From: an uncultured Nitrososphaerales archaeon
GTDB lineage: Archaea; Thermoproteota; Nitrososphaeria; Nitrososphaerales; Nitrososphaeraceae
Assembly: GCA_963695855.1 (NCBI GenBank)
Contig: CAVOHZ010000010.1
Coordinates: forward strand, 1,696,001 to 1,760,000
Direction: 5' to 3'
DNA length: 64,000 nt
Both the position numbers and the translations under genes were made by a program. Below are positions 38,273-62,537 of this stretch, one piece after another. Position 1 is the stretch's first letter. Every line of letters starts with the position of its first letter. The notes beneath the pieces are model-generated. The model had not been told where the DNA came from, ran no database searches, and saw only the letters and a list, made by a program, of their open reading frames with translations.

Positions 38273-38381
38273 ATTGTATTTTATTATTAGATTAGAAATT
38301 ATTTAAACATGATCTAATCAAAAAATATGGATGAATTATTGATGTTGTTAAATCATTCTCTATTTAACTACTGGAGTTGAG

Positions 38382-38428
38382 CGCCGAGAGTGGGACTCGA
38401 ACCTCGAAGCCATACAACTGGGTTTATA
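38382..38428 (-). other. tRNA 3'-end fragment (T-arm plus acceptor strand, discriminator G) with arm motif GGGTTTATA
   Basis: Reverse complement GGTTCGAGTCCCACTCTCGGCG; no D or anticodon arm; GGGTTTATA at 38420. Confidence 0.7.
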
Positions 38429-38666
38429 CTGTTAAATTTAAAAGTTCTAATTATTCCCACAATAGGAAATAAATTATTTTAAACCTTTTCTAACATTGTT
38501 AAAAGAATAATTTTATATTGTATTATGTAACGTACACTGGAGAAACAAATACATAGGAATTTGCCAAGAGTTATTATTCAAGAACTATTTTGGACAATAT
38601 TTAGAAATTCGATGAAAAATTTTAAAAAATATTATTTCTATTACTCTCAACGCTAGGAATTAAGTC

Positions 38667-39710
38667 TTAAATTATGGGCGGTTGTATTTCTCTTACACTC
38701 AAATTTCTAAAATCAACCAAGACATTATCCCATCTAAAAGTTGCAGTGGGAGAACCCCATGTAATTATTTGATCTTCTTTCCCTTGACATTTATTACCAT
38801 CTTTACCCCATCCTCCACTATCACGATCTTCCGCAATTTTGAACCATGTATTGTTGAGATAGGGATCAAGCCAATTCTCAAGTTTTACTGTGCCATCTTT
38901 GAGATTATACATGACACTTTTAAACCTAAACCAATTATCTTTTAAATCACCAAAAGGATGAGAAATTTTTGGTTTTTTCCATGGCTTTGCATGAACTAGT
39001 TCTTTATTTAAGTTACTTGTTCCATCAAAATAGATTTTAAGCTTATAGCTTGATCCACCACATCCATTATTTATAAGAGAATGATGCTCGGATCTAGCGT
39101 AATGTGTTATACCTGGACCTTCGCCTATTTTATATAAATACTCTCCAGTAATTTCTACATTCTTCCAATCTGTAGGTTTATACCAATAGCCTTTTTTCGA
39201 GAGCTCTGTAAAGTTATAAGTTTCCATATTTCCTTTTGGATAACCTATTCCGTCTTTGGAATATACTCCCATTCGGGATCTTTCGCCTATGCTATAACTT
39301 CCATCCTCATTCTTTATAATACTCTTATAATTATGCAAGTATGGATCTGATTCTGGATCATAATTATTCATAAACCATTCAAAACCATTTTTTTTAGTAG
39401 GATAGATTTTTTTTATTCCAAATATATCGATATCCAAATTACTAAAATTTGCTGGCTGATGTTTTATTTCCACTTCATGAAGATCAGCATCTTCTTGGTT
39501 TACAGATTCTGGATCTTTATATTTATTCTGTTGTGAAAATACTAAATTCTCATTTATAAAATAAGTGGTAGCTATTAACAGAAAAAACGAAAAAAGTATT
39601 ATTAAGCTAGTTTTTATTATTTTTTCTTTTTTCATAAATACAATAACGGTATAGATTTGAAAAAGGTTTTCATGTAATAAATATAAGAATAATTGATATT
39701 TGAGTAACAT
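38667..39710 (-). CDS. Secreted/membrane-anchored beta-rich protein, possibly carbohydrate-binding or lyase-like (true start probably MKKEK)
   Basis: TM/signal segment; WKNVEITG, GCGGSSYK, WFRFK, DSGGWG, TFRWD. Confidence 0.6.
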   Translation of the reverse strand: MLLKYQLFLYLLHENLFQIYTVIVFMKKEKIIKTSLIILFSFFLLIATTYFINENLVFSQQNKYKDPESVNQEDADLHEVEIKHQPANFSNLDIDIFGIKKIYPTKKNGFEWFMNNYDPESDPYLHNYKSIIKNEDGSYSIGERSRMGVYSKDGIGYPKGNMETYNFTELSKKGYWYKPTDWKNVEITGEYLYKIGEGPGITHYARSEHHSLINNGCGGSSYKLKIYFDGTSNLNKELVHAKPWKKPKISHPFGDLKDNWFRFKSVMYNLKDGTVKLENWLDPYLNNTWFKIAEDRDSGGWGKDGNKCQGKEDQIITWGSPTATFRWDNVLVDFRNLSVREIQPPII

Positions 39711-39849
39711 CTTAAGTTTATTGGACTAATTATTATCATTATTTGGTATACCAGTCTTTGAAATTGTAAAGTGATCTATTATTATGTTATTTTGAAAGCT
39801 AGTTATAGTAGTAGTTCTCTTATCTTAGTTTTATTTACTTATTTATTTT

Positions 39850-40038
39850 ATGGATAATATTTATTTTATGGATAATAATACTCGTATCAGAAAATTCTTA
39901 ACTTATAAATCGTACATATATAGTAAGTATATTTGTATTCCGAAAGACTTTGAAAAATTAAATTTGGAAGAAAACCAATTAATGAAATTAATGTTAAATG
40001 AAAATAATCAATTAATTGTTACTAGATTAGAGATTTAG
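39850..40038 (+). CDS. AbrB/MazE-like small DNA-binding protein
   Basis: SKYICIPKDF.KLNL....L.L.L......LIV pattern. Confidence 0.5.
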   Translation: MDNIYFMDNNTRIRKFLTYKSYIYSKYICIPKDFEKLNLEENQLMKLMLNENNQLIVTRLEI

Positions 40039-40039
40039 A

Positions 40040-40310
40040 TATATCTTTAAAACAATCTTCTCTTCAGGAAACTCAAGATCCCTGTCTAGTTCTAATGCTT
40101 TTTCTATATCATCTTTATAAATACGACCCAGTTCACATTTGGTTTTTTGCTTTGTTATACTAAGCATCAGCATATTTTGGATCTGTCTCCAAAGCCTTGT
40201 CCAAAAGATTCAAGCCTCTTTCATATCTACCAAGTATGTCAAGAACATTGCCTTTGTTATAGTAGGTTAGAACATATTTTGGATCTATATCTAATGATTT
40301 CTATAATAAT
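40040..40310 (-). pseudogene. TPR-repeat protein relic
   Basis: IDPKYVLTYYNKGNVLDILGRYERGLNLLDKALETDPKYADA*YNKA... with an in-frame stop. Confidence 0.75.
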
Positions 40311-40684
40311 TTTAGGGGAAACTCGTACTTTTTCTGTAATAACAACTTGTAGAAAGTAAGAAAAGATTATATTTATTATCTTCAATTTCTACATATTTAT
40401 CAATATAGTGTTTTTGCAAAGGTTTCCATTTGTTACCATCTTTAAAATCATATTCTAATTCCTCTATTTGAAAATCATGTACACTAAAAGTTTCGTTCGA
40501 ATTTTTGGAAATTAACATTAAATCTTTTGACAAAGCAATATTGCTGGTATAGATATAACGAAAAAATGATTGCAAATGAATAATTGTTGTTGCAGAAAAA
40601 TTGAGGAAGATATTTGTTATGTGTTATCTTCTGTGCATAACAAGTATCAGTTATTGTTGCTTGCTGTTTCTGTTCGTATCATGT

Positions 40685-41443
40685 TCATACTTTTGTTGCA
40701 GGTAGCACCAATATTTGACCGACCATGTTAGGCAGGTGTACGTGACAGACATAATTTATGATTCCCGGATTGTTTGCTATGAATGATACAGTATTGATTT
40801 GTCCTCTCATAAGTTCGAAGTTTCCTACTCCATCGACCGTAATTACATGATGTGCTCCTTGTACTCCTATGAAATGGAGAGTGACTTTATCGCCTTGGTT
40901 AACCACTATTTGATTTGGAGCGAATGCAAATGATCTAAAGTCCCAAGCTCCTGCTTTATTTGGTTCTGTTATCTTGATTCCTCCTCCAGTTGGTATAGTC
41001 GAATTTGCAGGAGGCTGCTCTGCTGGATGTAGTGGAGTATTCTGGGGACAAGTATCACATTTTACGGCAGCGTTTATGTTTGTCATTCCATCAAAATGTA
41101 CTGTATTTATCCAGAATTCCTTGTTCGTTGTTTGATTTGGGTTAACTGCTTTTACTGCTGCTCCAGTCATACTACTACTTGCTGATGCAGCCTTGTACTC
41201 ATTTGGTGTTTCTGTTGTTGTGCTTTTTGCAGGTTGGTAAACTTCTTGTGTCATTGCTTTCTGTAAGTTTTGAGTATTGTTGATGCCAATTATCATAGCC
41301 CCTACCACTGATGCAGCTATGATTGTCACAGCCATTAGCTGTGCTTGTTTTAAATCTATTATTTTTTTTCGATTCATTTTGTAGATGTAATATGTTCTAG
41401 TTTTCATATAAACAAGGAGACAAATTCCATCTCTGAATTTCAC
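40685..41443 (-). CDS. Membrane-anchored cupredoxin (type-1 copper) protein; likely start MNRKK at ~41377
   Basis: TM segment, F.PNQIVVNQGDKVTLHF, GAHH, YVCHVHLPNMVG (C-x2-H-x3-M); extra CDTC motif. Confidence 0.85.
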   Translation of the reverse strand: MKFRDGICLLVYMKTRTYYIYKMNRKKIIDLKQAQLMAVTIIAASVVGAMIIGINNTQNLQKAMTQEVYQPAKSTTTETPNEYKAASASSSMTGAAVKAVNPNQTTNKEFWINTVHFDGMTNINAAVKCDTCPQNTPLHPAEQPPANSTIPTGGGIKITEPNKAGAWDFRSFAFAPNQIVVNQGDKVTLHFIGVQGAHHVITVDGVGNFELMRGQINTVSFIANNPGIINYVCHVHLPNMVGQILVLPATKV

Positions 41444-41462
41444 AAATGGAATTCGTCTAACT
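41422..41462. promoter_or_regulatory. Palindromic operator-like sites GAATTCCA-N4-TGGAATTC (two overlapping imperfect copies)
   Basis: 41435-41462 matches the reverse complement of 42785-42812 at 24/28. Confidence 0.65.
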
Positions 41463-41627
41463 AAGGCAAAAATAGCAAAATTATTTTCAAAATCAGTTTA
41501 AGTATTTCTCGATCTTTGTTATAATAAATATTCTTCTTTCGCAAATGAAGAAAAAAGAACTACGCTTATTGCATCTATAATCGTTAATATATTAAATACG
41601 AACTAGATAACAAGAAATCAGAGAATA

Positions 41628-41981
41628 ATGATAGTTCAAAGCCAAAGAGCAAAGAAAGCACTCCTAGCTGCTTTGGCTGATGAAGAAATGACTAAAATCT
41701 TGGATTCTGTTATGTATCAATCTAAATCTATTGCTGATATCACAAGAGAAAATAATATTGCACATACTACATGCTATAGAAAAACCAAATGGCTAATTAA
41801 CGAAGGACTTGTTATAGTTGACAAAATTGTTATTACACCGGAAGGAAAGAAATTTAGTTTGTATCGTAGTGTTTTCAAATCTATAAACGCAAAATACGAA
41901 ATCAATAATGTAATTGTAGAAGCTGAACAGAATTTTGACATTGTAAAAAAGACAATGGCATGGTTTTATTCATTAGAATGA
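41628..41981 (+). CDS. ArsR-like winged-helix regulator
   Basis: LLAALADE...KIL...KSIADI....IAHTTCYRK...L...GLV...GKKFSLYRS. Confidence 0.82.
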   Translation: MIVQSQRAKKALLAALADEEMTKILDSVMYQSKSIADITRENNIAHTTCYRKTKWLINEGLVIVDKIVITPEGKKFSLYRSVFKSINAKYEINNVIVEAEQNFDIVKKTMAWFYSLE

Positions 41982-42011
41982 TGATCATAGGAATTATAAT
42001 AACACAACAAC

Positions 42012-42410
42012 TCAGTTATTGCTGCTACTAGTAGTCCTACTACCACCATTACTATTATCATTATCTATATTACTTTCAATCATCTTTTTTCCTCGTTTTT
42101 CTGCATAATAAAATCTAAACCACATTATAATAGTGAAAACGATTGCAGAGCCAACATGAATTTGCGATCCAATATTTGGTGGCAAAGTTGAAAATATAGC
42201 AATTCTATTATTCTCTATTATTTCTCCTAAAATGTAAACTGCAATAAATATTGATATTTGAAATTGGAATGCTTTAATGCTCTTGGATCTTACTGCAAGC
42301 CACATGAATATGATCAACGGTATGAATGACAGAATAAGTGTAATATCACTCATAGAATGCAAAAAATAAGAAGTACTGATAGTATTGTTAATTTCAAATA
42401 TATTTATCAA
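42012..42410 (-). CDS. Small 3-TM membrane protein
   Basis: Hydrophobic segments with intramembrane His residues; 4-bp overlap with the upstream gene. Confidence 0.7.
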   Translation of the reverse strand: MINIFEINNTISTSYFLHSMSDITLILSFIPLIIFMWLAVRSKSIKAFQFQISIFIAVYILGEIIENNRIAIFSTLPPNIGSQIHVGSAIVFTIIMWFRFYYAEKRGKKMIESNIDNDNSNGGSRTTSSSNN

Positions 42411-42721
42411 GTGTTAAACTCCTGCTGTTGTTGTTTTTTTGCTTTAAACGTACTTATAAGATACATTACTGCGAACAAAAGCAATGCCATCATCGATAAT
42501 GGTTCTAGAAATCCTTTTGCCAATAATCTAAAACCAAGAGTTCCAACAATGTGGTAGAAAACCTGAATTAAAATAAATCCAATAAGTATTATGGTTAATT
42601 TTGTAAGATGATTATTATTATTGATACTGTTTCTTGATTTTAAAATAAAGTATGCTGGAATTATAGCAGCAACGATGTAAACAATAGCGTCAATAAGATT
42701 ATAATATTGAGTTTCCAGCAT
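42407..42721 (-). CDS. Small 3-TM membrane protein
   Basis: Three hydrophobic segments; QVFYH. Confidence 0.7.
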   Translation of the reverse strand: MLETQYYNLIDAIVYIVAAIIPAYFILKSRNSINNNNHLTKLTIILIGFILIQVFYHIVGTLGFRLLAKGFLEPLSMMALLLFAVMYLISTFKAKKQQQQEFNT

Positions 42722-42784
42722 TTTTAGACTAATTCACCACTATTTAACAACTAATACTTTATAATTATATTGAACATTAAAAGT

Positions 42785-42812
42785 AGTTATACGAATTCCA
42801 GTTTTGGAATTC
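42785..42812. promoter_or_regulatory. Perfect 8-4-8 palindrome GAATTCCA-GTTT-TGGAATTC upstream of the membrane-protein pair
   Basis: Read directly at 42793-42812. Confidence 0.7.
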
Positions 42813-42916
42813 ACACATAAAATTCGTGTCTATTCTTATTAGAGCAATAAAGCAGATCGTAGAATAATGAATAATGAATAACATAAATCCTTTTATGAAA
42901 TATCAGAAATAAAAAA

Positions 42917-43186
42917 ATGAATTTGAGAAGCTACAGAAGAAACACCAAAATATACCTTGCTATGGTAGATCCCTGTCTTGTTTATAACAAGCATGTTCCA
43001 GCTGTTTACAATAAGGATACTCATTATGTAATAAATGAAAAGTTAACGTTAGAAATACTCAAGAAAATTTCTGATTGTGAACAAGTATTACAAATCAGTG
43101 ATGAATACACAGGCTGCTCTGCAACCATGGATGCATTATATGAGCTTAATCAGAGAAATTCCTCTAAATACAGTTTCTATGGATAA
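42917..43186 (+). CDS. Hypothetical protein or fragment
   Basis: 89-aa ORF, no recognisable motif. Confidence 0.35.
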   Translation: MNLRSYRRNTKIYLAMVDPCLVYNKHVPAVYNKDTHYVINEKLTLEILKKISDCEQVLQISDEYTGCSATMDALYELNQRNSSKYSFYG

Positions 43187-43329
43187 GGATGTGTTTTTAG
43201 ATAATAAAAATATAGCTGTTGAACAAGAAGTAAAGAATATCAAACTTCAAAATTAATTAGACTAGACTTTTCATTTAAGAGAAGTATTATCAAATATTAA
43301 ATATTATTAGAATTTCAAAACTGTCCTAA

Positions 43330-43410
43330 TTTATTAGGTAAGAAAGGAAAAAGTTATAACAATATTTTTTGAAATATACAATCCTAATCCTGTACCTTTA
43401 TCCTATTTCA
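43330..43410 (-). pseudogene. Histidine kinase HATPase fragment
   Basis: Encodes DKGTGLGLYISKNIV; TTTTTTGAAATATACAATCCTAATCCT is shared with the intact kinase at ~43597. Confidence 0.65.
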
Positions 43411-43469
43411 TTACAAAATTAACTTATCCATTATTTATCCATTTATTTACTATTATCAATAATGTCAAC

Positions 43470-45287
43470 TCATTCAAGTTCTTTCTCTTGTTTGCTTACA
43501 TTGCTTAATGGTATGGTAAAATAGAATACTGCTCCACCTCTATGATCTTTATCATTGTTCTCTGCCCATATCTTTCCACCATGAGCTTCAATTATGTTTT
43601 TTGAAATATACAATCCTAATCCTATTCCTTGAAAGGATGTTGTGATAAACTTTGAAAATAACTTTGGAAATATTTCTGAATCTATCCCTTCGCCTGTATC
43701 CCTTACAGTTACCATGGCATATCTTTCATCCATTTTCTCGGCATTAACAAATATCTCTCCTTCTTTAGTAAATTTTATGGCATTACTTATAAGGTTAGAA
43801 ATTACTTGACTAATTCTTTCTTTATCTGCCTCCACGATTAAAGTTTCTTTAGCTGTTTTAGAAAATAACTTGATATTCTGCCTACCGTCATCTTCTATCA
43901 GTGTACAATAGTCATTTACGACGGTTGATAATAGATCATTTAAATTGAAAGGTTCCTTTTCCAAATTTAGTGATTTGCTTTCAATTCTAGTGACATCCAA
44001 TATTTCGCTAGATAGTCTTTGAAGTCTAGTGGCATTTCGTTGTATCCCTTCTATGAACTGTTCTTGTTTTTCAGGATGCATTGACAACAGCTGTGAAAAA
44101 TTTAGAATAGATTGAGTTGGTGTTCTTAATTCATGTGCAGCTACATTGATAAATTCTTTTTGCATCGTATCATTCTTTTGCAAATCTTCATTTGCGCTTA
44201 AAAGTGCTTTATTAGATTCTTCCAGTTGTGCTGTTCTATGCTTTACTTCTTTATCGAGATTCCTGTTCCATTTTACAAGAAATATTATTAGAATAATGAC
44301 TGCCAATGTAAATGCCAAAATTAATGAAAATAGTTTTACTCTTTCTAAAAAAAGAGCCTGTTCTATAGAAGAATAGATTGATTCTATAGGACTTATAACA
44401 AAAACGAAATAGCTAGGTTCTCCTTGTAATAGAATTGGTTGACCAGTGTTCAATCTTTCACCACTTCCAAAATTATATACGGCAAAATCTTCAGATAAAT
44501 TATTTGAGAAGACCTTACGATAATAATCATTTTGAATATCATTAAAATTAAAGAATGATTGAACTTTATCACCAAAAAAATTTTCACCAAATAATTGTGC
44601 CCTAGGAGTAGCAATATAATTTGCATTTCTATCATAAGCCACCAAGAAGCTTGAATTTATATTGTTAATATTTCCATAATGGGCAAAAAAATCCTTGCTA
44701 GGTATCTCAACCCCGATAAGACCAATATACCGACCATCTTCTCTATTTATTATTGGAGCTATTAATGAAATTTTGTATTTATCATCCATTCCCTTGTAAC
44801 CATCAGAAAAGATAGGTTTTAATTTACTTTTTACCTGTTGAACATACTCTCTAAAGGAGATATCTATATTTACAAAGCTTCTTTGCCCCTCTGATACTAT
44901 GTTATAGGTCATTATATCATCACTATCAGCAATAAAAAGTCCATCGACTTTGGTAATGGCAGCAATATCTCTAAATTTCTCATTAAATAATTTTTCAATC
45001 CTCTCTCCATATAATTCGCCTTGTTGTAAATATATAGAATCAGTCAGTCCTTGGAGAATTGACATTATTAATTTTAGATCAGAGCTAATATGTTCCGCCA
45101 TAACTTTAGTGGATTCAATCTGTTCATCTCTTTGTTGTAAAAACATTTCATTCTTTATATTTTCCTCAGCAATCTTTTCCTGATAATAAAACAAACTATA
45201 AGATATGATAATTATCAAAATCATAGAAATAATACTTAATTTACTTTTATTATCGGAAAGAAAACGAAGAGATGAAATTAGTGTCAT
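43470..45287 (-). CDS. Membrane sensor histidine kinase (Cache-type extracellular domain, HisKA, HATPase)
   Basis: Two TM helices, H box AAHELRTP, N box NLISNAIKF, DTGEGI, GLGLYIS. Confidence 0.93.
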   Translation of the reverse strand: MTLISSLRFLSDNKSKLSIISMILIIIISYSLFYYQEKIAEENIKNEMFLQQRDEQIESTKVMAEHISSDLKLIMSILQGLTDSIYLQQGELYGERIEKLFNEKFRDIAAITKVDGLFIADSDDIMTYNIVSEGQRSFVNIDISFREYVQQVKSKLKPIFSDGYKGMDDKYKISLIAPIINREDGRYIGLIGVEIPSKDFFAHYGNINNINSSFLVAYDRNANYIATPRAQLFGENFFGDKVQSFFNFNDIQNDYYRKVFSNNLSEDFAVYNFGSGERLNTGQPILLQGEPSYFVFVISPIESIYSSIEQALFLERVKLFSLILAFTLAVIILIIFLVKWNRNLDKEVKHRTAQLEESNKALLSANEDLQKNDTMQKEFINVAAHELRTPTQSILNFSQLLSMHPEKQEQFIEGIQRNATRLQRLSSEILDVTRIESKSLNLEKEPFNLNDLLSTVVNDYCTLIEDDGRQNIKLFSKTAKETLIVEADKERISQVISNLISNAIKFTKEGEIFVNAEKMDERYAMVTVRDTGEGIDSEIFPKLFSKFITTSFQGIGLGLYISKNIIEAHGGKIWAENNDKDHRGGAVFYFTIPLSNVSKQEKELE

Positions 45288-46734: not shown

Positions 46735-47025
46735 CTAATTCAAATGTTCAATAGCCTTTTTTAAATCTTCAAATACCATTACTGGATGAAATTCAACTTT
46801 GGCTCCTAAATCCTGAAATAAGGGTTCTGCTATTGATGGTATCATATCAGCACTTTCGATGTTAATGATAAATGCAAAGGTTCTATCACCACCTGCTTCA
46901 AAGAAATATGCTGCTTCTGCCTTCACCTTCTGTATGTAATTCTCAAGTTCTTGTAAGAATTTTGGATTTTTTACCAGCTTGTTGCCTGCTTCTGTTGGTA
47001 TCTGTGCTCTAACTAAAAATCTCAT
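46735..47025 (-). CDS. Small conserved ferredoxin-like-fold hypothetical (GYD/DUF3303-like)
   Basis: EAAYF....G.RT...EPLFQ.L.AKVEFHPVM..EDL. Confidence 0.65.
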   Translation of the reverse strand: MRFLVRAQIPTEAGNKLVKNPKFLQELENYIQKVKAEAAYFFEAGGDRTFAFIINIESADMIPSIAEPLFQDLGAKVEFHPVMVFEDLKKAIEHLN

Positions 47026-47199
47026 ATGTTGTTTCTAATAATATTATGTCTCTTTAAACTTTCTATAGTTAAGTTAACGTAATGAAATGAATTATTAAAT
47101 TTATATGATTATTCCAAAAATTATTAAAAATCTACTTTACGATTATAAATAATAGTTTTGTATAGTAGTACAGATATGTGATTAGTTCTAGCTCTTCTT

Positions 47200-47440
47200 G
47201 TTCTGTTGAAGAGAGGAGATCATTAAATACAATCTCAAAAAAAATGATGTTGAACTTGGATTAACAAATTATAGATATGGCAATTGTTGCACTAATAAAA
47301 TAGCTAAATCTTGCGAAACCGATTGTTTTACAATGGTTATTATTCAATCATTACTTGAACCTAACGAAACATCTGCTGTGGTGCTAGAAGCATCAAATTG
47401 AGTTGGGACTGGATTGTTACCGTCATCTTGATAAGAAGTT
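47200..47440 (-). pseudogene. Relic of the Ig-like domain found in 60313..61392
   Basis: Reads QDDGNNPVPTQFDASSTTADVSLG vs QVTGNNPNPSEQFPSSTSGTVVTLDPG. Confidence 0.5.
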
Positions 47441-47679
47441 GATGTTCCTCTCTTCTTAATGTATAATAAGACATAACCCTCAGTTTTATATTGTCAAAGT
47501 ATGATCATGTCAATAGAATTGAAAATAAATAGATATTATTCTAAATGCTTTATTTTGTTTATATCTAGCCAGTCACAGGGTCTATAAATTATAAATAATA
47601 TACACTTTGTTTATATCATTGTAGAACCTTTTTTTACCTAGACTTTGACCTAGACTAAAGTGTATCTAACTATTTTTTA

Positions 47680-48625
47680 CCTCAAGCTTCATGAGATTCG
47701 GTTCAATCTACGATATTGTGATAAAACGCAATTATCCTAACATAAAACTAGAAAAATGCGCAATTAACAGAGAATATGGATAGCCCTAGTGAATGTACAA
47801 ATGCTTGAAGAAAGAAACAAAGAAAGAATGAAAGATTATCAGTCTCTATCCAGAAACACCAGAATACCAGGAATTAAATACAAAGGACATAACAAGTACT
47901 GATATCACATACCACCGCTTTGCTCTTCTATCATATATCTAAACATGGTAAAGACATCAGACCATATGGCTGCAGACATAATTAGAGAAGATAATTATCA
48001 CCAGAAATTCTGAAAGTTATGCTGCAAATATCTCAGATACTTTGATAAAGTAGTAGAGTAGACCAAAATACAGAAAAGCTGGATGTTTTCTAATTTTCTA
48101 TTATCTTAAATAATGTAAAATAAATCTCAAAAATGTAAAATAATGACATTTTTAGCTTTAACGTAATACTATGAAAGTTTGTAGAAAAATCCAGAGTATT
48201 TATGCCACATAGTTTCCAAATATCCAAGTAACTATGATAAGGTGATAGAGGAGGGGGAGCTTTTGGTATATATGTGGTCTTTAATTGGTGTTTTGTGCCC
48301 GATACCACAAAAATGCATTAGATGATATAACAAAAATCGCAAAAACTGAAGACAATGGTAGACCTAGAATTGATTCTCATAATGAAGATAATATAATCTA
48401 GTGATATCGTTCCAAAAGTCAGAGAATGATATTCTAAAGATGTATTCAAGTTGTTGAGCTACTGAAGATAAATGGAAGACCAGTTATCCCAAATAACAAC
48501 TTTATCATACATACAACATCATAACGAGATCACTTTTTTCTATGCATCTTCATGCTCAAGAAACAAAGTCTATGATAACAAGGATTGAAACAAAACAAGC
48601 AGTCAAGCTCTAGCGGAATTCAACT
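47680..48625 (+). pseudogene. Heavily decayed transposase-like relic
   Basis: Purine-rich coding-like fragments broken by stops, ending at GCGGAATTCAACT; family not assignable by eye. Confidence 0.25.
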
Positions 48626-49180
48626 ATTATCATTTTTTATTTTACGAATATTGAAAAAACAATGTCTTTTAATAATTGTTTGAAATACTAACATTGAAAA
48701 GCAAACAAGAGTTCAAGTCTATAATCATTAATGAATAAATCCTAAGATCAAATATAATTGTAAATATCAATATAGAATTTTATAATATTTTTAGTTTTTA
48801 GTATAGTTGATAATTCCTGAGTATACCGTGGTTTGTAAGAATATCACTAGAGTAATAAGGTTTTATTGTTATTCTTGTGATTACATGGCTTTTACATTTT
48901 TGCATTCTAGTAGAAGCTCATTAAAAATAAAAAGAATAGTCATCGTTTTTTATGGTCGTTTTCATTGTTGTTATTATTATGATTGGATTTCAAACATAAC
49001 CGGAAATCACTACCCAACGAGGTGGAAAGTTCCAAGTAATCTTATTTGTATTTTACCAAATACCTGAAGGTAAGAGGAATGAAGAAGTTAAGATAAGTTT
49101 GTTCATTAAATCGAAAAAACAAATAACAGTATAAAAAAACGGGCTATTCATATAGTATGAAGACTAATAAAGAGTAAATA

Positions 49181-53211: not shown

Positions 53212-53282
53212 CATAAACTATCTACGAATTGAACGCCGGGGAGTGGACCTCGAACCTTCGTTCATCAGATGTAGATTCTACT
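53212..53282 (-). other. Degenerate tRNA 3'-end fragment flanked by inverted arms (att-like)
   Basis: CGCCGGGGAGTGGACCTCGAACC (53234-53256) preceded by ATAAAC...GAATTGAA as at 7114-7131; ATCTAC/GTAGAT inverted pair at 53220 and 53271. Confidence 0.55.
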
Positions 53283-53528
53283 TTCGAATATTAAAATATT
53301 CCTTTAATTAAAAGATTATAGTTAGATATACCCAATCATACACACCTTTTTATTAGAATAATTTTTTTATCTTATCGGAGTCTTTTATAGAAGAGTTACA
53401 TTATTTTTGCAATCTCGCTAGTATTCATAATGTTATATTTTAGTTATTAGTCTTTAGTCACCGAAATAACCATAAAAATACTTTATTATTAGTTAATTAT
53501 ATTAATTATTCTTGTTAGTAAAAGTAGT

Positions 53529-53667: not shown

Positions 53668-54927
53668 ATGTATTGTATAAAAGTCATTATTATCACTTTG
53701 TGCCCAATAACTCAGATTCAAGACAAAAGTCATATTTTAGGAATCTATTCTTCACCACAGAGAAAAATAGAAGATGGTTTAGAATATCTTAGAATTGGAT
53801 TTGAGGAAAAAAATGAAGCAATATTAATGATTACTAATGAACTAACTAAAAATGAACTTAGAAATGAAATAATAAAAAGATGGAAGATTTCTCCAAATAA
53901 ATTGGCAGACCTAGAAAAAAATTCCATTATAAACATCAAAAGTTCTACAGAAGTCTATTTTTCGACTAATAGAATAGATCGTGACAAGATTGGCAAACAG
54001 TTTTCTGATCTAACAAATAAAGCAATACAGAAACGAAAAAGAGGTCTAAGGGCATTTGGAGATGTCAAAATCTTTTTTGAAAGAGGATATGAAAAATATA
54101 TTATTGAATTTGAAAAATCATTTCCACCTTCATTTGATTTTCCAATGACGTCTATTTGTGCTTATGATTTAGATGATTTTGAAAAGTTAGATCATCGATC
54201 TAGAAAAATACTTTTTGATCATCACAACCTACATCTTACAAATAATCTATTTCGAAATATATTTGATGATTCATTTTCTCTTAGTCTGACTGAACATATT
54301 TGTATGTATTATGAGAACGAATTACAATCTCCTTCTTTTTCTGATTCTTTTGTAACTAGTCTATCACGATATCTTGGTGAAGGATTACTACACGATCAAT
54401 TATGTATTTATCTTTCTATGCATAATATGAAAAAAGATCATCCAAAAACAATACTATCACAACTTGCTAATCTAAAAAAGTCTCCAATAAAAAAAAAATT
54501 TATCGTAATTAAAAATAGTGATGATTATTACATCAATGCAGTACGTAACAATCTAAAACCATTTGAAGATTTAAAAAAAGAAATTTTTGAGAAAGCAATA
54601 GTAGGCAATAAAAAAGATATTAGAATAGTATGTGATATTCCAAATTTTCTATTTAGATATAAACATTTTGATCAGTGTATTGCTCTAGAAGAATGGTGGG
54701 ATCAAACAATAGAAGAATTGAATAAAAATCATGGATTAAATGTATCGTTATTATGTCTATATGATAGTAATAATTTTAAAAATATTCCTTTTAAATATCA
54801 TAGATATAGAATAAATGATATTCATAGTATTGTTTGTGATTCGGAGGGAATAGTACACTCAAAATATTCAAAATTTGATTCACTAACAAATAAGATGAAA
54901 AGTGAGAAAGGAGGAGAAGGAAGATAA
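53668..54927 (+). CDS. Tandem MEDS-domain sensory protein
   Basis: HILGIY...YLRIG...GLRAFGD...ICAYD and HICMYYE...LGEGL...LEEWW...LLCLY. Confidence 0.82.
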   Translation: MYCIKVIIITLCPITQIQDKSHILGIYSSPQRKIEDGLEYLRIGFEEKNEAILMITNELTKNELRNEIIKRWKISPNKLADLEKNSIINIKSSTEVYFSTNRIDRDKIGKQFSDLTNKAIQKRKRGLRAFGDVKIFFERGYEKYIIEFEKSFPPSFDFPMTSICAYDLDDFEKLDHRSRKILFDHHNLHLTNNLFRNIFDDSFSLSLTEHICMYYENELQSPSFSDSFVTSLSRYLGEGLLHDQLCIYLSMHNMKKDHPKTILSQLANLKKSPIKKKFIVIKNSDDYYINAVRNNLKPFEDLKKEIFEKAIVGNKKDIRIVCDIPNFLFRYKHFDQCIALEEWWDQTIEELNKNHGLNVSLLCLYDSNNFKNIPFKYHRYRINDIHSIVCDSEGIVHSKYSKFDSLTNKMKSEKGGEGR

Positions 54928-55932
54928 ATGTTAGAGGATATCGGAAATCATAATAATGAGATTTCAAATAATAATAAGAAAAAAACAATAATACTTGTTA
55001 CAGGTAATATTCAATATTATCAACAACAATTTAATAATTATAATATCAATAAGTACAAAATAACATTCATCAATTGGAATGACATTTTGTCTTTTCTTAC
55101 GAATTTTGATGATACTAAACGTAAAAACCTTGAATTAATTATTTTAGATATTCCTACAGCAGCAAAAGATGCAAAGACCAATCAGATATCTACTAGCACT
55201 ATCAGAGAAATCAAAAAAATATTTTATGATACAAGAATATTTTTTATGTTACCATTCGAATCTATGATAGACAATTTACTATCTAAAGCAATATGTAAAC
55301 AAGAAGATATTCGCCTTCAACCATTTTCAGTATTTGATATAATAGATTTAATTTCCATCACAAAGAAAAATGAAAGGCTTGATCGATTACAATTAAAAGA
55401 TCACTGTATGTATATATATTCTTCTGTTGACGATAAGGTCAAGGACGCAATTAAATTTCTAAAAATAGGAATAGAAAATAATGAAATGACTCTACTACTA
55501 TTAAGCAGAGAGATTGATCCTTCTTATCTGCTATGTCAAATTGCATTACATGATATTGATATAAGTAAATTACAGAATAACGGATTATTGAAGATTGCCA
55601 ATACTGAAGAATATTATTTATCCTTTAATCAAAAAGACAATAAAATTAACACAGTAACAGTAGATAATAAAAAAGTACATAGCAACTTCTTTAATTTAGC
55701 AGATCAAGTTAACAAGAGAGAAGGAATTAATGGATTGCGAATATTTGCTATGCTTGATTGTTTCTTTGAACATGGTTTAATTGATGAATTAGTTGATTAT
55801 GAATGTGAAACTCCATTTAAATTTAGCAAACCAATTCTTGGGATATGTGCTTATAATGATAAACATATAGCACAATTATCAGAAGATCAAATCAGAAAAC
55901 TAGTATTAACTCATAGTAGCGTTTGGATATAA
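54928..55932 (+). CDS. Degenerate receiver-like domain + MEDS domain protein
   Basis: LIILD...QPFS N-terminal half; DHCMYIY...FLKIG...GLRIF...GICAY...H C-terminal half. Confidence 0.75.
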   Translation: MLEDIGNHNNEISNNNKKKTIILVTGNIQYYQQQFNNYNINKYKITFINWNDILSFLTNFDDTKRKNLELIILDIPTAAKDAKTNQISTSTIREIKKIFYDTRIFFMLPFESMIDNLLSKAICKQEDIRLQPFSVFDIIDLISITKKNERLDRLQLKDHCMYIYSSVDDKVKDAIKFLKIGIENNEMTLLLLSREIDPSYLLCQIALHDIDISKLQNNGLLKIANTEEYYLSFNQKDNKINTVTVDNKKVHSNFFNLADQVNKREGINGLRIFAMLDCFFEHGLIDELVDYECETPFKFSKPILGICAYNDKHIAQLSEDQIRKLVLTHSSVWI

Positions 55933-55977
55933 TTTATTATTTCCTTCAATTTTTTATAATTATATTCTATTTATTAA

Positions 55978-56400
55978 TCACAATACTATCAATCGTTCTT
56001 TTTTATCATCTTGTTGTTGGTAGTTGTATAAAAGTGAATGAATGTTACTTCGTAGTTCGTTTAACCAGATTGGTTTGTATATAATAATCTTTTCTATATC
56101 TGGATTGTTTTTCTTTAGATGTTCTATATACTCTTTATTTGTAGCAGTAATAAATCTAAATAATAGAGCTTGATCTATATTTTTCAATTTTTTAGATAAT
56201 TTCATTCCATTCATTTTAGGCATTTTCAAATCCAGTAAAGCGAGATTATATACATTTTTTTTAAAACAGTACAAAGCATCAATAGGATCGGTAAAAGCAT
56301 CAACTTTATATCCATCATATTCTAAAAATGTTTTAAATAGATTAATGAGATCTTCATCATCATCTACTATTAATATATTTTTACCTTTTGGAATAGGCAT
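55978..56400 (-). CDS. Stand-alone response regulator receiver
   Basis: ILIVDDD, LLDLKMPKMNG, FITA, KPI. Confidence 0.92.
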   Translation of the reverse strand: MPIPKGKNILIVDDDEDLINLFKTFLEYDGYKVDAFTDPIDALYCFKKNVYNLALLDLKMPKMNGMKLSKKLKNIDQALLFRFITATNKEYIEHLKKNNPDIEKIIIYKPIWLNELRSNIHSLLYNYQQQDDKKERLIVL

Positions 56401-56660
56401 TTTTACATGCTCACATTATTAAACAACAACGTCCTTTATAAAGATGAGAGGGAATTATTAACAGTTTGATTTAAGAGATTAACATTTGTCTCAATAGGTG
56501 TAAGATTATAATATTTTCGAGAATAATTTTGAATATTCCAGATATAGTAGTATTCTTCACAATTCAGAAGTTTTTCTATTTCCCAATAATGGAATGCAAT
56601 TATCCATATTTTTGCTATGTTAGAAGGAGTCATTATAAAAAACGTGTACAGCGTCTTTTT

Positions 56661-57290
56661 TCAATACTCTTTGTATCTGAAGCACTTTATCTCATGATCG
56701 TTTACCATGCCGACTGCCTGCATAAAGGCATAGCAGATGGTGGAGCCAACAAACTTGAAACCGTGTTTAAGCAAGTCTTTGCTCATTGTATCGGACTCCT
56801 TAGTGTTGGTTGGAATATCTTTAATTGTTTTGATTTTGTTATTGATCGGCCTGCCGTTTACAAACTGCCAGATATACACATCGAAAGTACCGAATTCTTT
56901 TTGAATTTTCAAAAATGCTTTGGCATTGTCGATCGTAGATGCAATCTTCAAGCGATTACGGATAATCCCTGGATCAGTAAGGAGTCGATTTACGTCTTCC
57001 TTCCCATAACAAGCGATTTTGTCCGCATGGAAGCCATCAAATGCCCTGCGGTAGTTTTCACGTTTATTTAAAACGGTTTGCCATGTAAGACCTGCCTGGG
57101 CACCCTCAAGAATTAGGAATTCAAAGAGCGTGTGATCGTCATGCACTGGTACACCCCACTCCTTATCATGATACTCAATCATGAGAGGATTATTAAATCC
57201 TGTCCAACTACACCGTCTTTTGTTGTACATTACATTTTCATTGGAGAAGGTATAGTTACTTGTAGATATGACATTCGATGATTTATCCAT
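56661..57290 (-). CDS. tag: DNA-3-methyladenine glycosylase I
   Basis: RCSW, YHDKEWGVP, LEGAQAGLTW, IIRNRLKI, GFKFVGSTICYAFMQAVG.VNDH...C. Confidence 0.95.
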   Translation of the reverse strand: MDKSSNVISTSNYTFSNENVMYNKRRCSWTGFNNPLMIEYHDKEWGVPVHDDHTLFEFLILEGAQAGLTWQTVLNKRENYRRAFDGFHADKIACYGKEDVNRLLTDPGIIRNRLKIASTIDNAKAFLKIQKEFGTFDVYIWQFVNGRPINNKIKTIKDIPTNTKESDTMSKDLLKHGFKFVGSTICYAFMQAVGMVNDHEIKCFRYKEY

Positions 57291-58130: not shown

Positions 58131-58788
58131 AAATTAATATGCTAATTTGAACTAATAGCTTAAAACTTAAATTAATACTCATTATAAAAGCAATATAATT
58201 TTTGTAAAGTTATTTTTTATCATAATATGAAATATTTTATTTTAGATTAAATCTATTAATGTGTCTATTACTATAAAACATTTTAATCAAAACTGCTATT
58301 AATTTTTAACAAAACAAAGGAATGTTTATTTGTCATAGACTTTAACACCATATAAATGGGATTACATTCACGATTTTCTACCATTAGGTATTTTTATCAT
58401 CTTTGCTTTTGATGAAAAAGCTAATTGAAGTAAAATTTTTACTTTAATATCAAATAAATTCGAGATAAAATAATAAAAAAGTAAAATTGAATTAAAAAAA
58501 TTTGTCGAATATTGAAAAATAAATATTTTTACATATCTTAAAAGAATAACAAATAAATTTAAATATATTCTCACTGATGTTTTCATTTTAAATATACTAC
58601 TAATACAAAAATCTGTTTGCACGGTTCATCTTTTAACTTAACAGTAGGGTTCTACTACATAATTAGCAAGATGCTCGGGAGTGGAACCGTCCATGTAGTA
58701 CGGTTCTACTACCATGTATTTAGCTTTTATTATTAGAAACTTAATTAAATATAAAAATCAAAATCCGTTTAATAGTTTGTCATTTATC

Positions 58789-58971: not shown

Positions 58972-59180
58972 AAGCTTAGTCTATCAATATAGTTATTATT
59001 AGTTTCTTAGAAATGTTAATGACATGCATGCATAACGTTTGACTACTAGTATTCTAGAAAGACCAATGATAAATGAATTCTATAAAAAAATAATTATCAT
59101 TAAGTCCGTTTAAAAATAATGAATTACCTAAGTGGTCTTTACTCTTTTATTAGGGATGTAAATAATCCATCATTGGCATT

Positions 59181-59248
59181 GAGGGGATGGGATTCGAACC
59201 CCTATATGTATTCACGGGTTTATATTTTAGTATCGCTAGAGTAATAGA
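59181..59248 (-). other. Exact 21-bp copy of the tRNA-Val 3' end followed by an inverted 15-bp arm motif (att-like site)
   Basis: GAGGGGATGGGATTCGAACCC = 7134-7154; ATTCACGGGTTTATA (59210-59224) is the reverse complement of 7113-7127. Confidence 0.85.
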
Positions 59249-59334
59249 TTGTAACTATATAAAAACATGATAGTATACTATAAAAAATAAAAAAAAGAAA
59301 TGATAGATGTTATCCACACTTAAAGATGACTAGA

Positions 59335-60087
59335 CTAGTCTTGAGGTGGTGGGAATACGGTTGGTGGAATAGCATCATCAAATATGTTATTGATACAATT
59401 CACTACAATAGTAAACTGTTCTTCTGAAAAACCTGCATTGGAAAATGCCTGTGCTAATGTAGTACCAAGTTGTTGCAAGGTGTTCTCATCCCCGGCTGCA
59501 AATGCTTCGGAAATTTCTTCACATAGTTGTTCAAATGTTGTTACTTGACCTTGTGTTAAATCACTTATCTCAGTAAGTAGTTCAGTCTGCTCTTCTTCTG
59601 AATCTAGATTTTCGGTGAAGCAGTCTTCACATGGACTGGGTTCTTCTTCTGCTGGTGGTGGAGTAATTTTTACCTGTTCATTGTCATTGACATTTACACA
59701 TATGTTTACAAGATTTCTCTCGAAGTTTATACTATCTCCCCATCCATTACCATTTTGTGTACCTGTTGCGTCTGCTGCTCCTTCATTTGCTGCTGCAGTG
59801 GCAGTATCATCTTGAGGTATTTGGGTAATATCTATACCATTTACATTTATGTTACTATTTACACACTTTATTTTCTGGATATCTGTATGAGAACTCTTTT
59901 TTTGATGGTTATTGTCATAACCGTATCTATTGTCGTCTTGATAATAGTTATTGTCGTATCCATAATCATTGGCGTACATCTGTGCTTGCGCATTTCCTAT
60001 CATGTTTGATGGATTTAGAGCGAATAGACCTGCTGCCACTATCAACGTGATAGAAGCCAGAACTATCTTTTTTGTCTGATGGGTCAT
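59335..60087 (-). CDS. Secreted acidic Cys-containing protein (paralog family)
   Basis: Signal peptide MTHQTKKIVLASIT, Tyr/Asp-rich repeats, KIKCVNSNINVNGIDIT, NLVNICVNVNDNEQ, CEDCF helical domain. Confidence 0.85.
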   Translation of the reverse strand: MTHQTKKIVLASITLIVAAGLFALNPSNMIGNAQAQMYANDYGYDNNYYQDDNRYGYDNNHQKKSSHTDIQKIKCVNSNINVNGIDITQIPQDDTATAAANEGAADATGTQNGNGWGDSINFERNLVNICVNVNDNEQVKITPPPAEEEPSPCEDCFTENLDSEEEQTELLTEISDLTQGQVTTFEQLCEEISEAFAAGDENTLQQLGTTLAQAFSNAGFSEEQFTIVVNCINNIFDDAIPPTVFPPPQD

Positions 60088-60312
60088 TGCATTGTTAAAT
60101 GCGAATTTAATATATCTAATGTTGGAAGGAACATTATCTAATGTTATAATATTTCAAGATTCTGAATTATTCACAATAAGAATAATAGCAATTGATCTAC
60201 AAGTACAATATGAGATATTATAACAATATTATACGTTAAATTATAATAAGTTAATTAATTCAAAATAAATAAAAAATAAATTGAAAGGTGAGATCTCACC
60301 CAAACGTTCTGT

Positions 60313-61392
60313 TTATACTATTGTTGGTGGCGGGATAGCATCGTTAAATACGTCATTTAGACAGTCGAATACAGTGTTAAACTGATCTGTTAATTGTGCT
60401 TGGTTAAATGCGTTTTCTAATAGATTGCTAAGTTGTTGCAACGTGTCCTCATCCCCGGCTGCTACTGCTTCGGAAAATTCTTCACATAGTTGTTCAAATG
60501 TGGTTATTTGACCCGATGTCAGTCCACTTATCGCAGTAAGTAGGCTAGCCTGGTCATCATCATTTAGATTTCGGGTAAAACATTCATCACATGTAACCTC
60601 TTTGATTGTAATTGAATTTGTTGCTGTACAGGTCTGTGTTTGTCCCGCCGCTATTGTTCCCCTTGTTATGAAACCACCGCTGTCTTCATCACAATCTCCT
60701 GTATATGATACAATAAGAGCGGCTTGGCGGGGTGGATCGTTATGATCAGGAGATTGCAACCAAGCAATGATATCGGTGATGTACTGCCCGAAATCTTCTA
60801 TTACTTGATAATCACCCGGATCCAACGTTACGACTGTTCCACTAGTAGAACTGGGAAATTGTTCTGAAGGATTTGGATTGTTACCAGTCACTTGGAAAAG
60901 AAAATCACTTTCATCTATTGTTGTTGATAGTAGGTCTTCACAATCACCTTCAATTTCGTCTGTACAGACAATTTTTTTAGCAACCGTCAAAGTCGTCTCT
61001 GGTGGACTAACTTGCTGTTCGTTGTCATTTACATTTACACATATGTTTACAAGGTTCCTGTCGAAGTTTATTTTATCGAAGTCATTACCATTCTGTGAAT
61101 TTGATGCGTCTGCTGCTTCTATTCCTTCATTTGCTGCTGCAGTAGCAGTAGTGTCTTCAGGTATCTTGGTAATATCTATACCATTGACATTTATGTTACT
61201 GTTTACACAGTTTATTTTCTGGATATCTCCAGGAGAACTCTTTTTCGGATAGTTATTGTCATATCCATATTCATAATTTCCGTACATTTGTCCTTGAGCA
61301 TATCCTATTATTGATGGGTTTAAAGCCAATAGACCTGTCGCTATTATCACCGTGATAGAAGCCAGAACTATCTTTTTTGTCTGATGGGTCAT
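60313..61392 (-). CDS. Secreted paralog with an inserted Ig/prealbumin-like domain
   Basis: Same N- and C-terminal blocks as 59335..60087 plus TLTVAKKIVC...VTGNNPNP...PGDYQV.E...GDC...I.AG.T.TCT.TN. Confidence 0.85.
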   Translation of the reverse strand: MTHQTKKIVLASITVIIATGLLALNPSIIGYAQGQMYGNYEYGYDNNYPKKSSPGDIQKINCVNSNINVNGIDITKIPEDTTATAAANEGIEAADASNSQNGNDFDKINFDRNLVNICVNVNDNEQQVSPPETTLTVAKKIVCTDEIEGDCEDLLSTTIDESDFLFQVTGNNPNPSEQFPSSTSGTVVTLDPGDYQVIEDFGQYITDIIAWLQSPDHNDPPRQAALIVSYTGDCDEDSGGFITRGTIAAGQTQTCTATNSITIKEVTCDECFTRNLNDDDQASLLTAISGLTSGQITTFEQLCEEFSEAVAAGDEDTLQQLSNLLENAFNQAQLTDQFNTVFDCLNDVFNDAIPPPTIV

Positions 61393-61716
61393 TACCTTGT
61401 TATTTACGATTTTAATATATCTGAGGTTGGAAGGAACGCTATTTGATATTGTAATATTTCAAGATTCTGAATTATTGACTATAAGAAGAATAGAAAATGA
61501 TGTTAAGGTGGAAAGTGAAATCCTTGTGTAGCAACACCAACATATGTGCCACAGAAATTTCATACGGGTTCGGTGGGAATCATGAGCCTACGTACATGAG
61601 TTGATATATTCATTTTTATTACTAAAAAGACGATTTTTCTCCTGTATCTTCGCTTAAGGTTAACAAACAACGCAGAGAATTATATAGAATAGCTTTTCTT
61701 ATCATCTTGAAAAGCT

Positions 61717-62313
61717 TTGTTATCGCTAGAAGCCATTCTTGGAGTAATAGGAATAAGTGCTACAATAGTCGTCGGTGTAGGAGTATATAGATTACAAAGA
61801 AAGGAAAAAGAGGACACTGATAATGTTCTAAGAATAATTAACAGTGTAACCCTAAAACAATCAGAGATTCTTGATTGGTGGAAGATTCAACGTAGAAAAC
61901 ATGTAGATTGGTTTGTATATCATGTTGGTGGCGCTTTACAAACTCTTATAAAAGATTATCAGGAATTAAATGAAGGATTAACTAAATATCAAAATGATAC
62001 ATCTGAAGAAAATCTTAAAAGCATAATGGATATCTTAGACAAGTGCAGAACAACTCTGGCTCAATTAGTGGCATTAGCGGAACGAGATATTTTAGTTGCT
62101 GCAGCTCATATTGCCAATCCCTGGATTGAAGGAAAATTTCTTGAAGTGATTTTGTCGTATGAAACTGGAATATTTCTTAGAGAAGAAACAATCCGTTCCA
62201 TGGATAACGACCAATTAAGTCAATACAAACAATCAGTGCAACTAGTAATCAATAAAATGCAAAATGATCTAGAAATTATACAAAAAGAGAAAAAAATTGA
62301 AGAATTAAAATAA
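61717..62313 (+). CDS. Hypothetical protein, N-terminal TM and helical body
   Basis: 198-aa ORF, LGVIGISATIVVGVGVY anchor. Confidence 0.6.
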   Translation: MLSLEAILGVIGISATIVVGVGVYRLQRKEKEDTDNVLRIINSVTLKQSEILDWWKIQRRKHVDWFVYHVGGALQTLIKDYQELNEGLTKYQNDTSEENLKSIMDILDKCRTTLAQLVALAERDILVAAAHIANPWIEGKFLEVILSYETGIFLREETIRSMDNDQLSQYKQSVQLVINKMQNDLEIIQKEKKIEELK

Positions 62314-62537
62314 GGCCGATGGTTGTATTCCGAATTGCTTGTGCGTTTCTCAGATTAACTGTCCATGTTGTGGGAGTTTAGGTGGTATTTTGGGGGACAT
62401 GACTCGAACTTATTATCAAAAATTAAAAACTTTAAGATTTTGTAACTATTAAATTAACAATATGAGCAGATACCATAAATTTAGACGAAATTATGATAAA
62501 TGTTTTTATAAATCAGTTATAAATCCAATCATAAATT

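Follow-up and report, generated by a model that had tools for sequence, protein, structure and literature searches.

The stretch of DNA analysed here (the window) comprises 64,000 nucleotides of the genome of an uncultured archaeon (contig C10, positions 1696001-1760000). The genome, denoted G000 (other G-numbers stand for the genomes of relatives), measures 3.55 Mb at 31% GC in 11 contigs and is 99.9% complete. Core archaeal genes are found between 7 and 30 kb of the window, among them those for SHMT, both PolD subunits, GGGP synthase, Orc1/Cdc6, CdvA, acetyl-CoA synthetase, ThyX and FEN1. From about 30 kb onward, the window is occupied by a patchy accessory region with small open reading frames (ORFs) and an insertion sequence (IS), along with genes for a sensor kinase, a response regulator and MEDS-domain proteins. 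Within this region lie three short sites, at 38382, 53234 and 59181, in which a copy of a tRNA 3' end is set between recurring arm sequences. These are probably attachment-site (att) junctions of integrative elements that belong to one tyrosine integrase family, and window positions from about 38 to 64 kb would form the old, distal part of an array of such elements.

The real sites share one layout, in which a left and a right arm enclose 22-24 nt copied in antisense from the 3' end of a tRNA (acceptor strand, T-stem and T-loop). The core at 38382-38403 reads CGCCGAGAGTGGGACTCGAACC, one mismatch away from its consensus, and GGGTTTATA follows at 38420-38428. At 53234-53256 the core, CGCCGGGGAGTGGACCTCGAACC, is preceded by ATAAAC..GAATTGAA and heads a block (53668-57290) of two MEDS-domain genes, a response regulator and a methyladenine glycosylase. 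Positions 59181-59201 are an exact 21-nt copy of the 3' end of tRNA-Val, and the 15-mer ATTCACGGGTTTATA at 59210-59224 is the exact inverse of 7113-7127 beside that tRNA gene. An earlier note on this DNA had drawn attention to these places, and the strings it quoted were found where it put them. All three sites also lie, as it had observed, on one strand; relative to a tRNA on the minus strand, such as tRNA-Val at 7131-7207, they are antisense.

Table 1. Features of the window, in window coordinates.
Feature	Position	Strand	Details
Tyrosine integrase, 503 aa	5552-7063	-	Pfam PF00589, PF13495; PHROG 1 integrase, E 4e-20; reference member of the family
Left (integrase-side) arm of Val-type site	7113-7127	+	TATAAACCCGTGAAT; exact inverse copies at 59210-59224 and C10:1677995-1678009
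tRNA-Val(TAC)	7131-7207	-	ARAGORN; Rfam 64.5 bits; intact; source of 59181 core
Insertion sequence, rve transposase	36297-37255	+	no counterpart at this place in G027, G024
Junction site 38382	38363-38430	+	left flank ..AACTACTGGAGTTGAG, C-type; Ser(CGA)-type core 38382-38403; B/V-type right arm 38412-38428
Coreless site	48816-48856	+	B-type right arm and left-end motif TATCACTAGAGTAAT; no recognisable core; nhmmer E 2.5e-6
Left-end motif copy	50707-50721	+	TATCGCTAGAGTAAT; motif scan; nhmmer E 2e-3
Junction site 53234	53213-53301	+	AAATAATCCA-like left flank; degenerate Ser-type core 53234-53256; A-type right arm 53263-53280; conserved ATATTAAAATATT
att-like site, other family	58638-58755	+	core resembles 3' end of tRNA C8:2734; own arm GTAGTAGGGTTCTACTAC; conserved TGTATTTAGCTTTTATTATTAG; 46 genome copies
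Junction site 59181	59160-59245	+	left flank AAATAATCCATCATTGGCA, AAATAATCCA-type; Val(TAC) core 59179-59202; V-type right arm 59208-59224; left-end motif 59231-59245
Two genes of a multi-copy family	59335-61392	-	other copies inside intact Val-type and B-type elements

Two nhmmer profiles were built solely from sites outside the window. In the window they match at 53237 (E 8.7e-15), 59182 (2.9e-12), 38383 (2.3e-8), 48819 (2.5e-6) and 50701 (2e-3), all on the plus strand, and the profile scan that the earlier note proposed thus added two further sites, 48819 and 50701. The arm at 48.8 kb was placed by motif scan and nhmmer, as MAFFT misaligned it. Across the genome, the profiles return 11 and 17 matches at E<=0.01 (4 and 5 of them training sites), compared with 0 and 0 in the reversed genome. 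Furthermore, when orphan copies with at most 3 mismatches were counted outside tRNA genes for 33 tRNAs, the 3'-terminal 24-mers gave 55 matches, a figure that includes redundancy among tRNAs resembling each other and possibly one or two that are unannotated, and the 5'-terminal 24-mers gave 1. It is thus extremely improbable that the resemblance to tRNA ends is fortuitous: the decoy counts, the 3'/5' asymmetry and the E-values down to 1e-14 with window-free profiles refute a chance origin of 38382, 53234 and 59181, and the co-orientation of these sites is likewise real.

A chance resemblance applies only to 61565 and 62391, which had been listed as weaker copies. Neither has a profile match at E<=10 (nhmmer), both are 15-22 nt BLAST matches, and the string at 61565 is not a tRNA fragment. 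Within window 61555-61576, 19-22 nt recur 50-110 nt from other att-like sites (C6:89971, C1:82291 and C9:828), which hints that the string may be a further element-end motif. The remaining weaker copy, at 58672, is a real site, but one of another class with its own arm and many copies in the genome (Table 1). An alternative identity of 58638-58755 as the terminal repeat of a miniature inverted-repeat transposable element (MITE) or IS was rejected, since only about 110 nt are widely repeated, 5 of the 36 other matches reach about 415 bp, and a tRNA-like core and arm stand at the start.

The cores derive from different tRNAs while related right arms are shared (38412 and 59208), as had been suspected. 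More specifically, the core of 59181 maps to tRNA-Val(TAC), the sole tRNA that ARAGORN and Rfam find within the window, and those of 38382 and 53234 map to a tRNA-Ser(CGA) on another contig, C2:4437-4558. No tRNA matching the latter two cores is among those found genome-wide by ARAGORN or Infernal. They belong to a family with the core CGCCGGGAGTGGGACTCGAACC, which has 13 genome matches at <=4 mismatches, two of them within the Ser(GGA) and Ser(GCT) tRNA genes. The match at C2:4437 continues as a complete T-arm, followed by a variable arm and by a 5' acceptor strand that is complementary. ARAGORN (with or without introns) and Infernal miss this gene on the unedited sequence; once an insert of about 16 nt in the D-loop is removed in silico, ARAGORN calls a tRNA-Ser(CGA) with a 20-nt anticodon-loop intron. 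C2:4437-4558 (minus strand) is thus a probable tRNA-Ser(CGA) gene with two introns, one of which lies in the D-loop. The gene and its upstream flank are kept in 24/24 other genus genomes searched. In several of them, homology among relatives begins at its 3' end, with different DNA beyond it in every relative examined, and across the genus the gene is the target of at least three integrase-bearing elements.

Aligned on their cores, the copies have flanks that fall into a few classes, which are inverted repeats of one another across the core. These are class A (left arm TAGAACCCACAT, right arm ATGTGGGTTCTA), class B (left arm ACAAACCCAGGTGTAC, right arm GTACACCTGGGTTTGT), class V (left arm TATAAACCCGTGAAT, right arm ATTCACGGGTTTATA) and class C (left arm GACTACTGGAG, right arm CTCCAGTAGTC), together with an additional left-flank class, AAATAATCCA..TTG. 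The same arm classes flank intact integrase-bearing elements beside tRNA-Val and tRNA-Ser. A complete V site has 24-nt arms that are 71% complementary around a centre between GGGA and TTCGAACC, and an A site of G001 shows the same geometry. The symmetry centre given in the earlier note holds for the complete Val site; its counterpart at 53234 depends on an inverted pair of 6 nt, which was absent from the output of the repeat tool. A left flank ending in GACTACTGGAGTTGAG, found beside tRNA-Ser in G024 and G027, could be the native trailer of that tRNA or else an arm, since its inverted copy serves as a right arm in G024. A 15-mer left-end motif, TATCRCTAGAGYAAT, comes 4-6 nt after the B and V right arms. 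It has 33 genome copies at <=1 mismatch, several of which lie beside cores from yet other tRNAs, and three copies in the window (48842, 50707 and 59231), all on the plus strand.

The reference integrase of 503 aa is encoded immediately downstream of the tRNA-Val 3' end. It has an N-terminal SAM-like domain and, past the catalytic domain, a C-terminal double zinc ribbon and a coiled-coil-like tail; its paralogues align across residues 15-482. In the genome, paralogues with 51-55% identity (tblastn) are located at C10:1793492-1794877, C10:1771612-1772907 and C2:3013-4290, and a broken copy at C10:1675793-1676621 (tblastn). The paralogues, from a family of 440-500 aa, each lie directly left of a core. 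Integrases at C10:1703063, 1794877 and 1772907 and at C2:4290 are 70-150 nt from their cores (tRNA-Val, tRNA-Ser(CGA) and two tandem junctions). That one integrase family stands beside the same core types agrees with what the earlier note had proposed. Two features of tRNA-targeting elements are present: a tyrosine recombinase gene adjoins one att site, and a direct repeat of a tRNA 3' end bounds the element, with an intact tRNA at one end (36 bp for the Val element, 22 nt for the B element described below). Within window 8-64 kb, tblastn finds no homologue of this integrase family, and none adjoins 38382, 53234 or 59181; the genome search used five queries at E<=1e-6, and other recombinase families would escape it.

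Window positions 7121-7156 recur as an exact 36-bp repeat at C10:1677952-1677987, 25 kb leftward, so that an integrated element has its right end at the left edge of the window. tRNA-Val(TAC) is the attR of this provirus-like element to its left. The element carries a terminase-large-subunit-like gene at 3540-4871 (minus strand; PHROG 2, E 1e-20), by which it looks like a head-tailed provirus or its remnant, and also a helicase-methyltransferase fusion at 10-2169 (plus strand). Relatives of the window integrase come from Nitrososphaeraceae, one Ca. Nitrosocosmicus record among them; on this basis the host looks like a Nitrosocosmicus-like member of the Nitrososphaeraceae and thus a soil-type ammonia-oxidising archaeon. 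In other Nitrososphaeraceae, closer integrase homologues follow downstream of the 3' ends of tRNA-Ser or tRNA-Val at a distance of 100-260 nt, and the arm strings there are similar. At homologue loci there, ARAGORN detects a tRNA in 8/40, and a T-loop-like motif occurs at most 330 nt upstream in 18/49; in about 13 of these 18 a tRNA-like 3' terminus follows, and the others appear to match the pattern by chance.

Elements with matched arms are found to the right of the window. The site at C10:1773057 reads A-left, core, B-right, and that at C10:1794999 reads B-left, core, A-right. The two enclose an intact B element of 21.9 kb with matched arms, a 22-nt direct repeat and the integrase at 1793492-1794877, and this element sits between two A-type elements. 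At C2:4437 the order is A-left, core, tRNA body, and the A-type end at C2:1-4436 holds an integrase (C2:2989-4290) beside tRNA-Ser(CGA). The right end of C10 starts with an A right arm, and C2 starts inside an A-type element that ends at tRNA-Ser(CGA); the right arm on C10 and the integrase and left arm on C2 would therefore be two halves of one matched element. The window sites are connected to such elements by homology. The DNA right of 59181, 48842 and 38382 is homologous to the interiors of other elements, for 48842 and 38382 to the part just inside their left ends, and window 49046-49452 matches, at 86% identity, the sequence immediately inward of attL in the intact B element.

Site 53234 and the block to its right are conserved in G027, and orthologous sites occur in G001 and G031; in these two genomes the right side is homologous, whereas homology on the left is lost at the core's first base. 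G031 has the two MEDS genes and the response regulator in a block that starts 180 nt past a Ser core with an A arm, 5.7 kb from tRNA-Ser(CGA). In G010, the region of the glycosylase (window 56.5-57.4 kb) is 6.7 kb away from this tRNA, in a unit that starts with a Ser core and an A arm. In both genomes the orientation equals that of the window (plus) followed by C2 (plus). Site 38382 falls within a 284-nt stretch specific to G000, and its flanking blocks lie on different contigs in the relatives examined. For 59181, left-flank matches in relatives end about 28 nt before the core, and the junction with both flanks is absent from all 24 other genus genomes searched. In addition, a left unit with 90% identity across at least 640 nt continues past its Ser core with an A arm in G027 (C96:7835) and with another arm in G000 (C10:1312094), and a second left unit differs in its right partner at the core between G024 and G027.

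Motif scans with four core types and the left-end motif, once merged, give 105 orphan sites genome-wide, compared with 8 full-length integrases. Neighbouring sites within 5 kb are on the same strand in 32/35 pairs (binomial p 2e-7, for pairs that are not independent), and from C10:1734382 to 1794999 the scans place 8/8 sites on the plus strand. Same-strand intervals of at most 25 kb number 56 and have a median length of 3.9 kb, with 12 under 1 kb. A clear anchored example is located on C8, where the tRNA at C8:2734 and an adjacent 493-aa integrase together occupy C8:2734-4235. Farther along, from 23 to 44 kb, the motif scan places seven sites of the 58672 type, all in one orientation, to which BLAST adds two others at about 31.0 and 34.1 kb.

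Since relatives hold the genes of window 53-57 kb only 6-8 kb from tRNA-Ser(CGA), the most likely reading of the accessory region is the distal part of a tandem accretion array on that tRNA, old, decayed and without integrases. In the attP, a left and a right arm, inverted relative to each other about the T-loop, would enclose the last ~22 nt of the tRNA (acceptor 3' strand, T-stem and T-loop). Strand exchange at or close to this loop would restore the tRNA from element DNA and leave the old tRNA end as the distal copy. New elements would enter the tRNA-proximal copy, and older units would be pushed outward and decay. The array would run from window ~38-64 kb through C10:1760000-1805656 to contig C2 and tRNA-Ser(CGA) at C2:4437-4558, in the order 38382, 48842, 50707, 53234, 58672, 59181, C10:1773057, 1794999, contig break, tRNA-Ser(CGA), and younger elements would have moved the accessory region at least 50 kb from the tRNA. 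We infer the crossover position, the C10-to-C2 join and the order of events. The intact integrase-bearing elements are in fact nearest tRNA-Ser(CGA) and the decayed integrase-less units farthest from it, which is the order that serial integration at the tRNA-proximal copy predicts. On this reading the process is ordinary serial insertion beside a tRNA, at unusual density. The accretion that the earlier note envisaged is supported in the form of intergenic, co-oriented junctions left by serial integration. The distance from tRNA genes that it stressed is, given the positions in G031 and G010, most simply explained by array length rather than by insertion remote from tRNA genes.

Several observations weigh against such an array. 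The breaks relative to the closest relatives, G027 and G024 (37849, 44107 and 57949), do not fall at recognisable cores; in more distant relatives, homology ends precisely at the 53234 core. G012 has the MEDS block and tRNA-Ser on separate contigs, and no sequence spans C10 and C2. Most junctions have mismatched arms (e.g. B...D', A...D'), and each interval must therefore be a composite or a truncation. Simple serial integration does not predict a Val core (59181) and a C8:2734-type core (58672) in a Ser array; a T-loop crossover common to many tRNAs would permit recombination across cores, which is a speculation. On the genomic scale, 98 orphan sites are on contigs with an annotated tRNA, and for 82 of them the distance to the closest such gene exceeds 20 kb; many arrays, e.g. 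C8:164-167 kb and C10:1276-1282 kb, lack an anchoring tRNA in their vicinity. An integrase match is found in just 6/56 intervals (full-length in 4), a proportion that fits decay and, equally well, cassettes mobilised in trans.

Such cassettes are the substance of a different explanation, in which each arm-core-arm module is a complete recombination site of a small unit without an integrase, and a few integrases shuffle the units in trans. The arrays would then resemble cis-mobilisable elements or integron cassettes and be actively built and re-sorted rather than scars. The short intervals with few integrases speak for it, as do the surplus of orphan sites over full-length integrases, two core-plus-A-arm sites 0.7 kb apart in G022, neighbour swaps exactly at the core between genomes with 90-95% identity, and the MEDS, response-regulator and glycosylase cargo, which is intact at 82-94% identity. 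Against these stand the comparison of G000 with its closest relatives, in which no presence/absence difference of an att-bounded unit was found, the mismatched arms of the window sites with the degenerate core of 53234, and window 47-51.5 kb, where the lack of any ORF of at least 90 aa is what decay would give. We consider a living cassette system unlikely on this balance. Its fullest form would be an archaeal counterpart of the cassette platform, independent of integrons, in which ~100 arm/tRNA-core/arm modules per genome separate integrase-less units of 0.5-5 kb in co-oriented arrays, a few zinc-ribbon tyrosine integrases excise, take up and re-sort these units in trans, and cores of different tRNAs recombine because the crossover falls in the almost universal T-loop; this, too, is doubtful.

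The sites might also be passengers, made at tRNA genes and carried here piecemeal in mobile DNA or by IS- or integrase-driven rearrangement, with no single array behind them. An integrase is reportedly the proposed agent of chromosomal inversions in Thermococcales, a possible parallel. Parts of the study of these archaea (PMC5495485) describe large inversions as frequent and offer a model of how they arise. Passengers would suit the abundance of IS and MITE-like repeats in the region, the mixture of core origins within a single array, and several Val-type sites whose two flanks are both identical at the three loci C10:1667366, C3:256542 and C8:260250. Random transport would, in contrast, not yield the uniform strand of the eight sites here or of 32/35 pairs genome-wide, nor the synteny of G031 and G010 with tRNA-Ser(CGA), and piecemeal carriage is thus quite improbable. 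Serial integration at tRNA-Ser(CGA) remains our preferred explanation.

The earlier note had called the system integron-like. This analogy is not supported, because the integrase is not of the IntI type and the window sites lack attC-like folding. The best NCBIfam match of the integrase, to the only related model, reaches 31.2 bits where the cut-off is 220, and none of the integron-integrase models passes. When single-stranded DNA folding was compared with shuffles, the window sites showed no hairpin excess (z -0.5, -0.06 and +0.17), whereas matched-arm sites elsewhere fold better than shuffles (z -2.0 and -3.6). Integrons have been reported in Archaea in portions of a preprint (bioRxiv 10.1101/2022.02.06.479319). 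They share with the present arrays the co-oriented runs of short gene units between recombination sites and the small number of integrases. Unlike integrons, the arrays have tRNA-derived cores and arms instead of attC, and in the window neither an integrase nor an attI heads the array. No candidate attI or cassette promoter beside an integrase was seen in the window.

Closer parallels exist among integrated elements. Passages of a survey of Thaumarchaeota elements (Krupovic et al. 2019, PMC6563490) describe tyrosine recombinases, 3'-distal insertion into tRNA genes, including intron-containing ones, and arrays formed through site re-use. The att repeats are short in both cases, with a median of 17 bp in those passages compared with 22 bp here; arm classes, orphan junctions far from tRNAs and dense integrase-less arrays are not described in them, and the name Nitrosocosmicus has 0 occurrences in the main text. 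Tandem integration and integrase loss in Archaea are noted in sections of a review (PMC8371274). Sections of a study of Dehalococcoides (McMurdie et al. 2011, PMC3146451) report ssrA islands in tandem downstream of one small RNA gene, with 20-bp direct repeats of its 3' end, T-loop insertion and all repeats within 100 kb of the gene; some islands are without an integration module and are proposed there to be cis-mobilisable units gained by accretion. Those islands are bacterial, use a serine recombinase and have tmRNA as their single target, according to the same sections. The present arrays differ from them by tyrosine recombinases, at least 4 tRNA-derived core types mixed within arrays, and many arrays without a near anchor gene. 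In the literature searched, we found no account of arm classes, mixed-core arrays or such orphan-site density in Nitrososphaeraceae.

In the accretion of streptococcal integrative and conjugative elements (ICE) and their cis-mobilisable relatives (CIME), integrase-less att-flanked units likewise pile up in tandem beside an integrase-bearing element. Mobility in trans has been shown for those units; here it is a proposal from sequence. The T-loop sublocation class of tRNA integration sites, said to go back to Williams in 2002, is similar in its duplicated segment, which spans T-loop to 3' end, and in arms that mirror each other across the T-stem and loop; unlike in that class, the crossover position here is deduced.

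Serial stacking at one tRNA, with sensor-kinase, response-regulator and DNA-repair genes kept as cargo, would explain the build-up of a large accessory region beside the replication-origin genes of a soil ammonia oxidiser. The cores, arm classes and left-end motif provide practical markers for delimiting mobile DNA in Nitrososphaeraceae, where standard tools overlook an intron-containing target tRNA and decayed elements. If the units do move in trans, they would represent a new route of gene capture in Archaea.

Additional features characterise the accessory region and its surroundings. G027 and G024 are 94-96% identical to and collinear with window 26-36 kb, and in both, window 37849-44107 is replaced by ~1.3 kb of other DNA. 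An att-bounded insertion was sought behind this G000-specific segment and none was found; the replacement is a complex one, in which the N-terminus of a sensor kinase has diverged. The IS at 36297-37255 has 99.8% identical copies at C10:1155427 and C7:9079, and its absence from G027 and G024 indicates a recent insertion. Next to it, four RTX calcium-binding nonapeptide repeats (Pfam E 1e-25), unusual in an archaeon, are encoded by a small ORF at window 37326-37802, which has paralogues at C8:106288 and C10:1288357. The 4.5 kb of window 47025-51551, in which fragments are 67-88% identical to genes elsewhere, look like a pseudogene graveyard. Within them, a repeat of ~360 bp (50097-50465) has 97-99% identical copies at C8:113660, C10:1354501 and C10:1407607 as well as many diverged ones, and is probably a miniature mobile element. 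Finally, the two genes at 59335-61392 have no Pfam or PHROG match, and their family has paralogues at more than 30 genome loci, which cluster within integrated elements.

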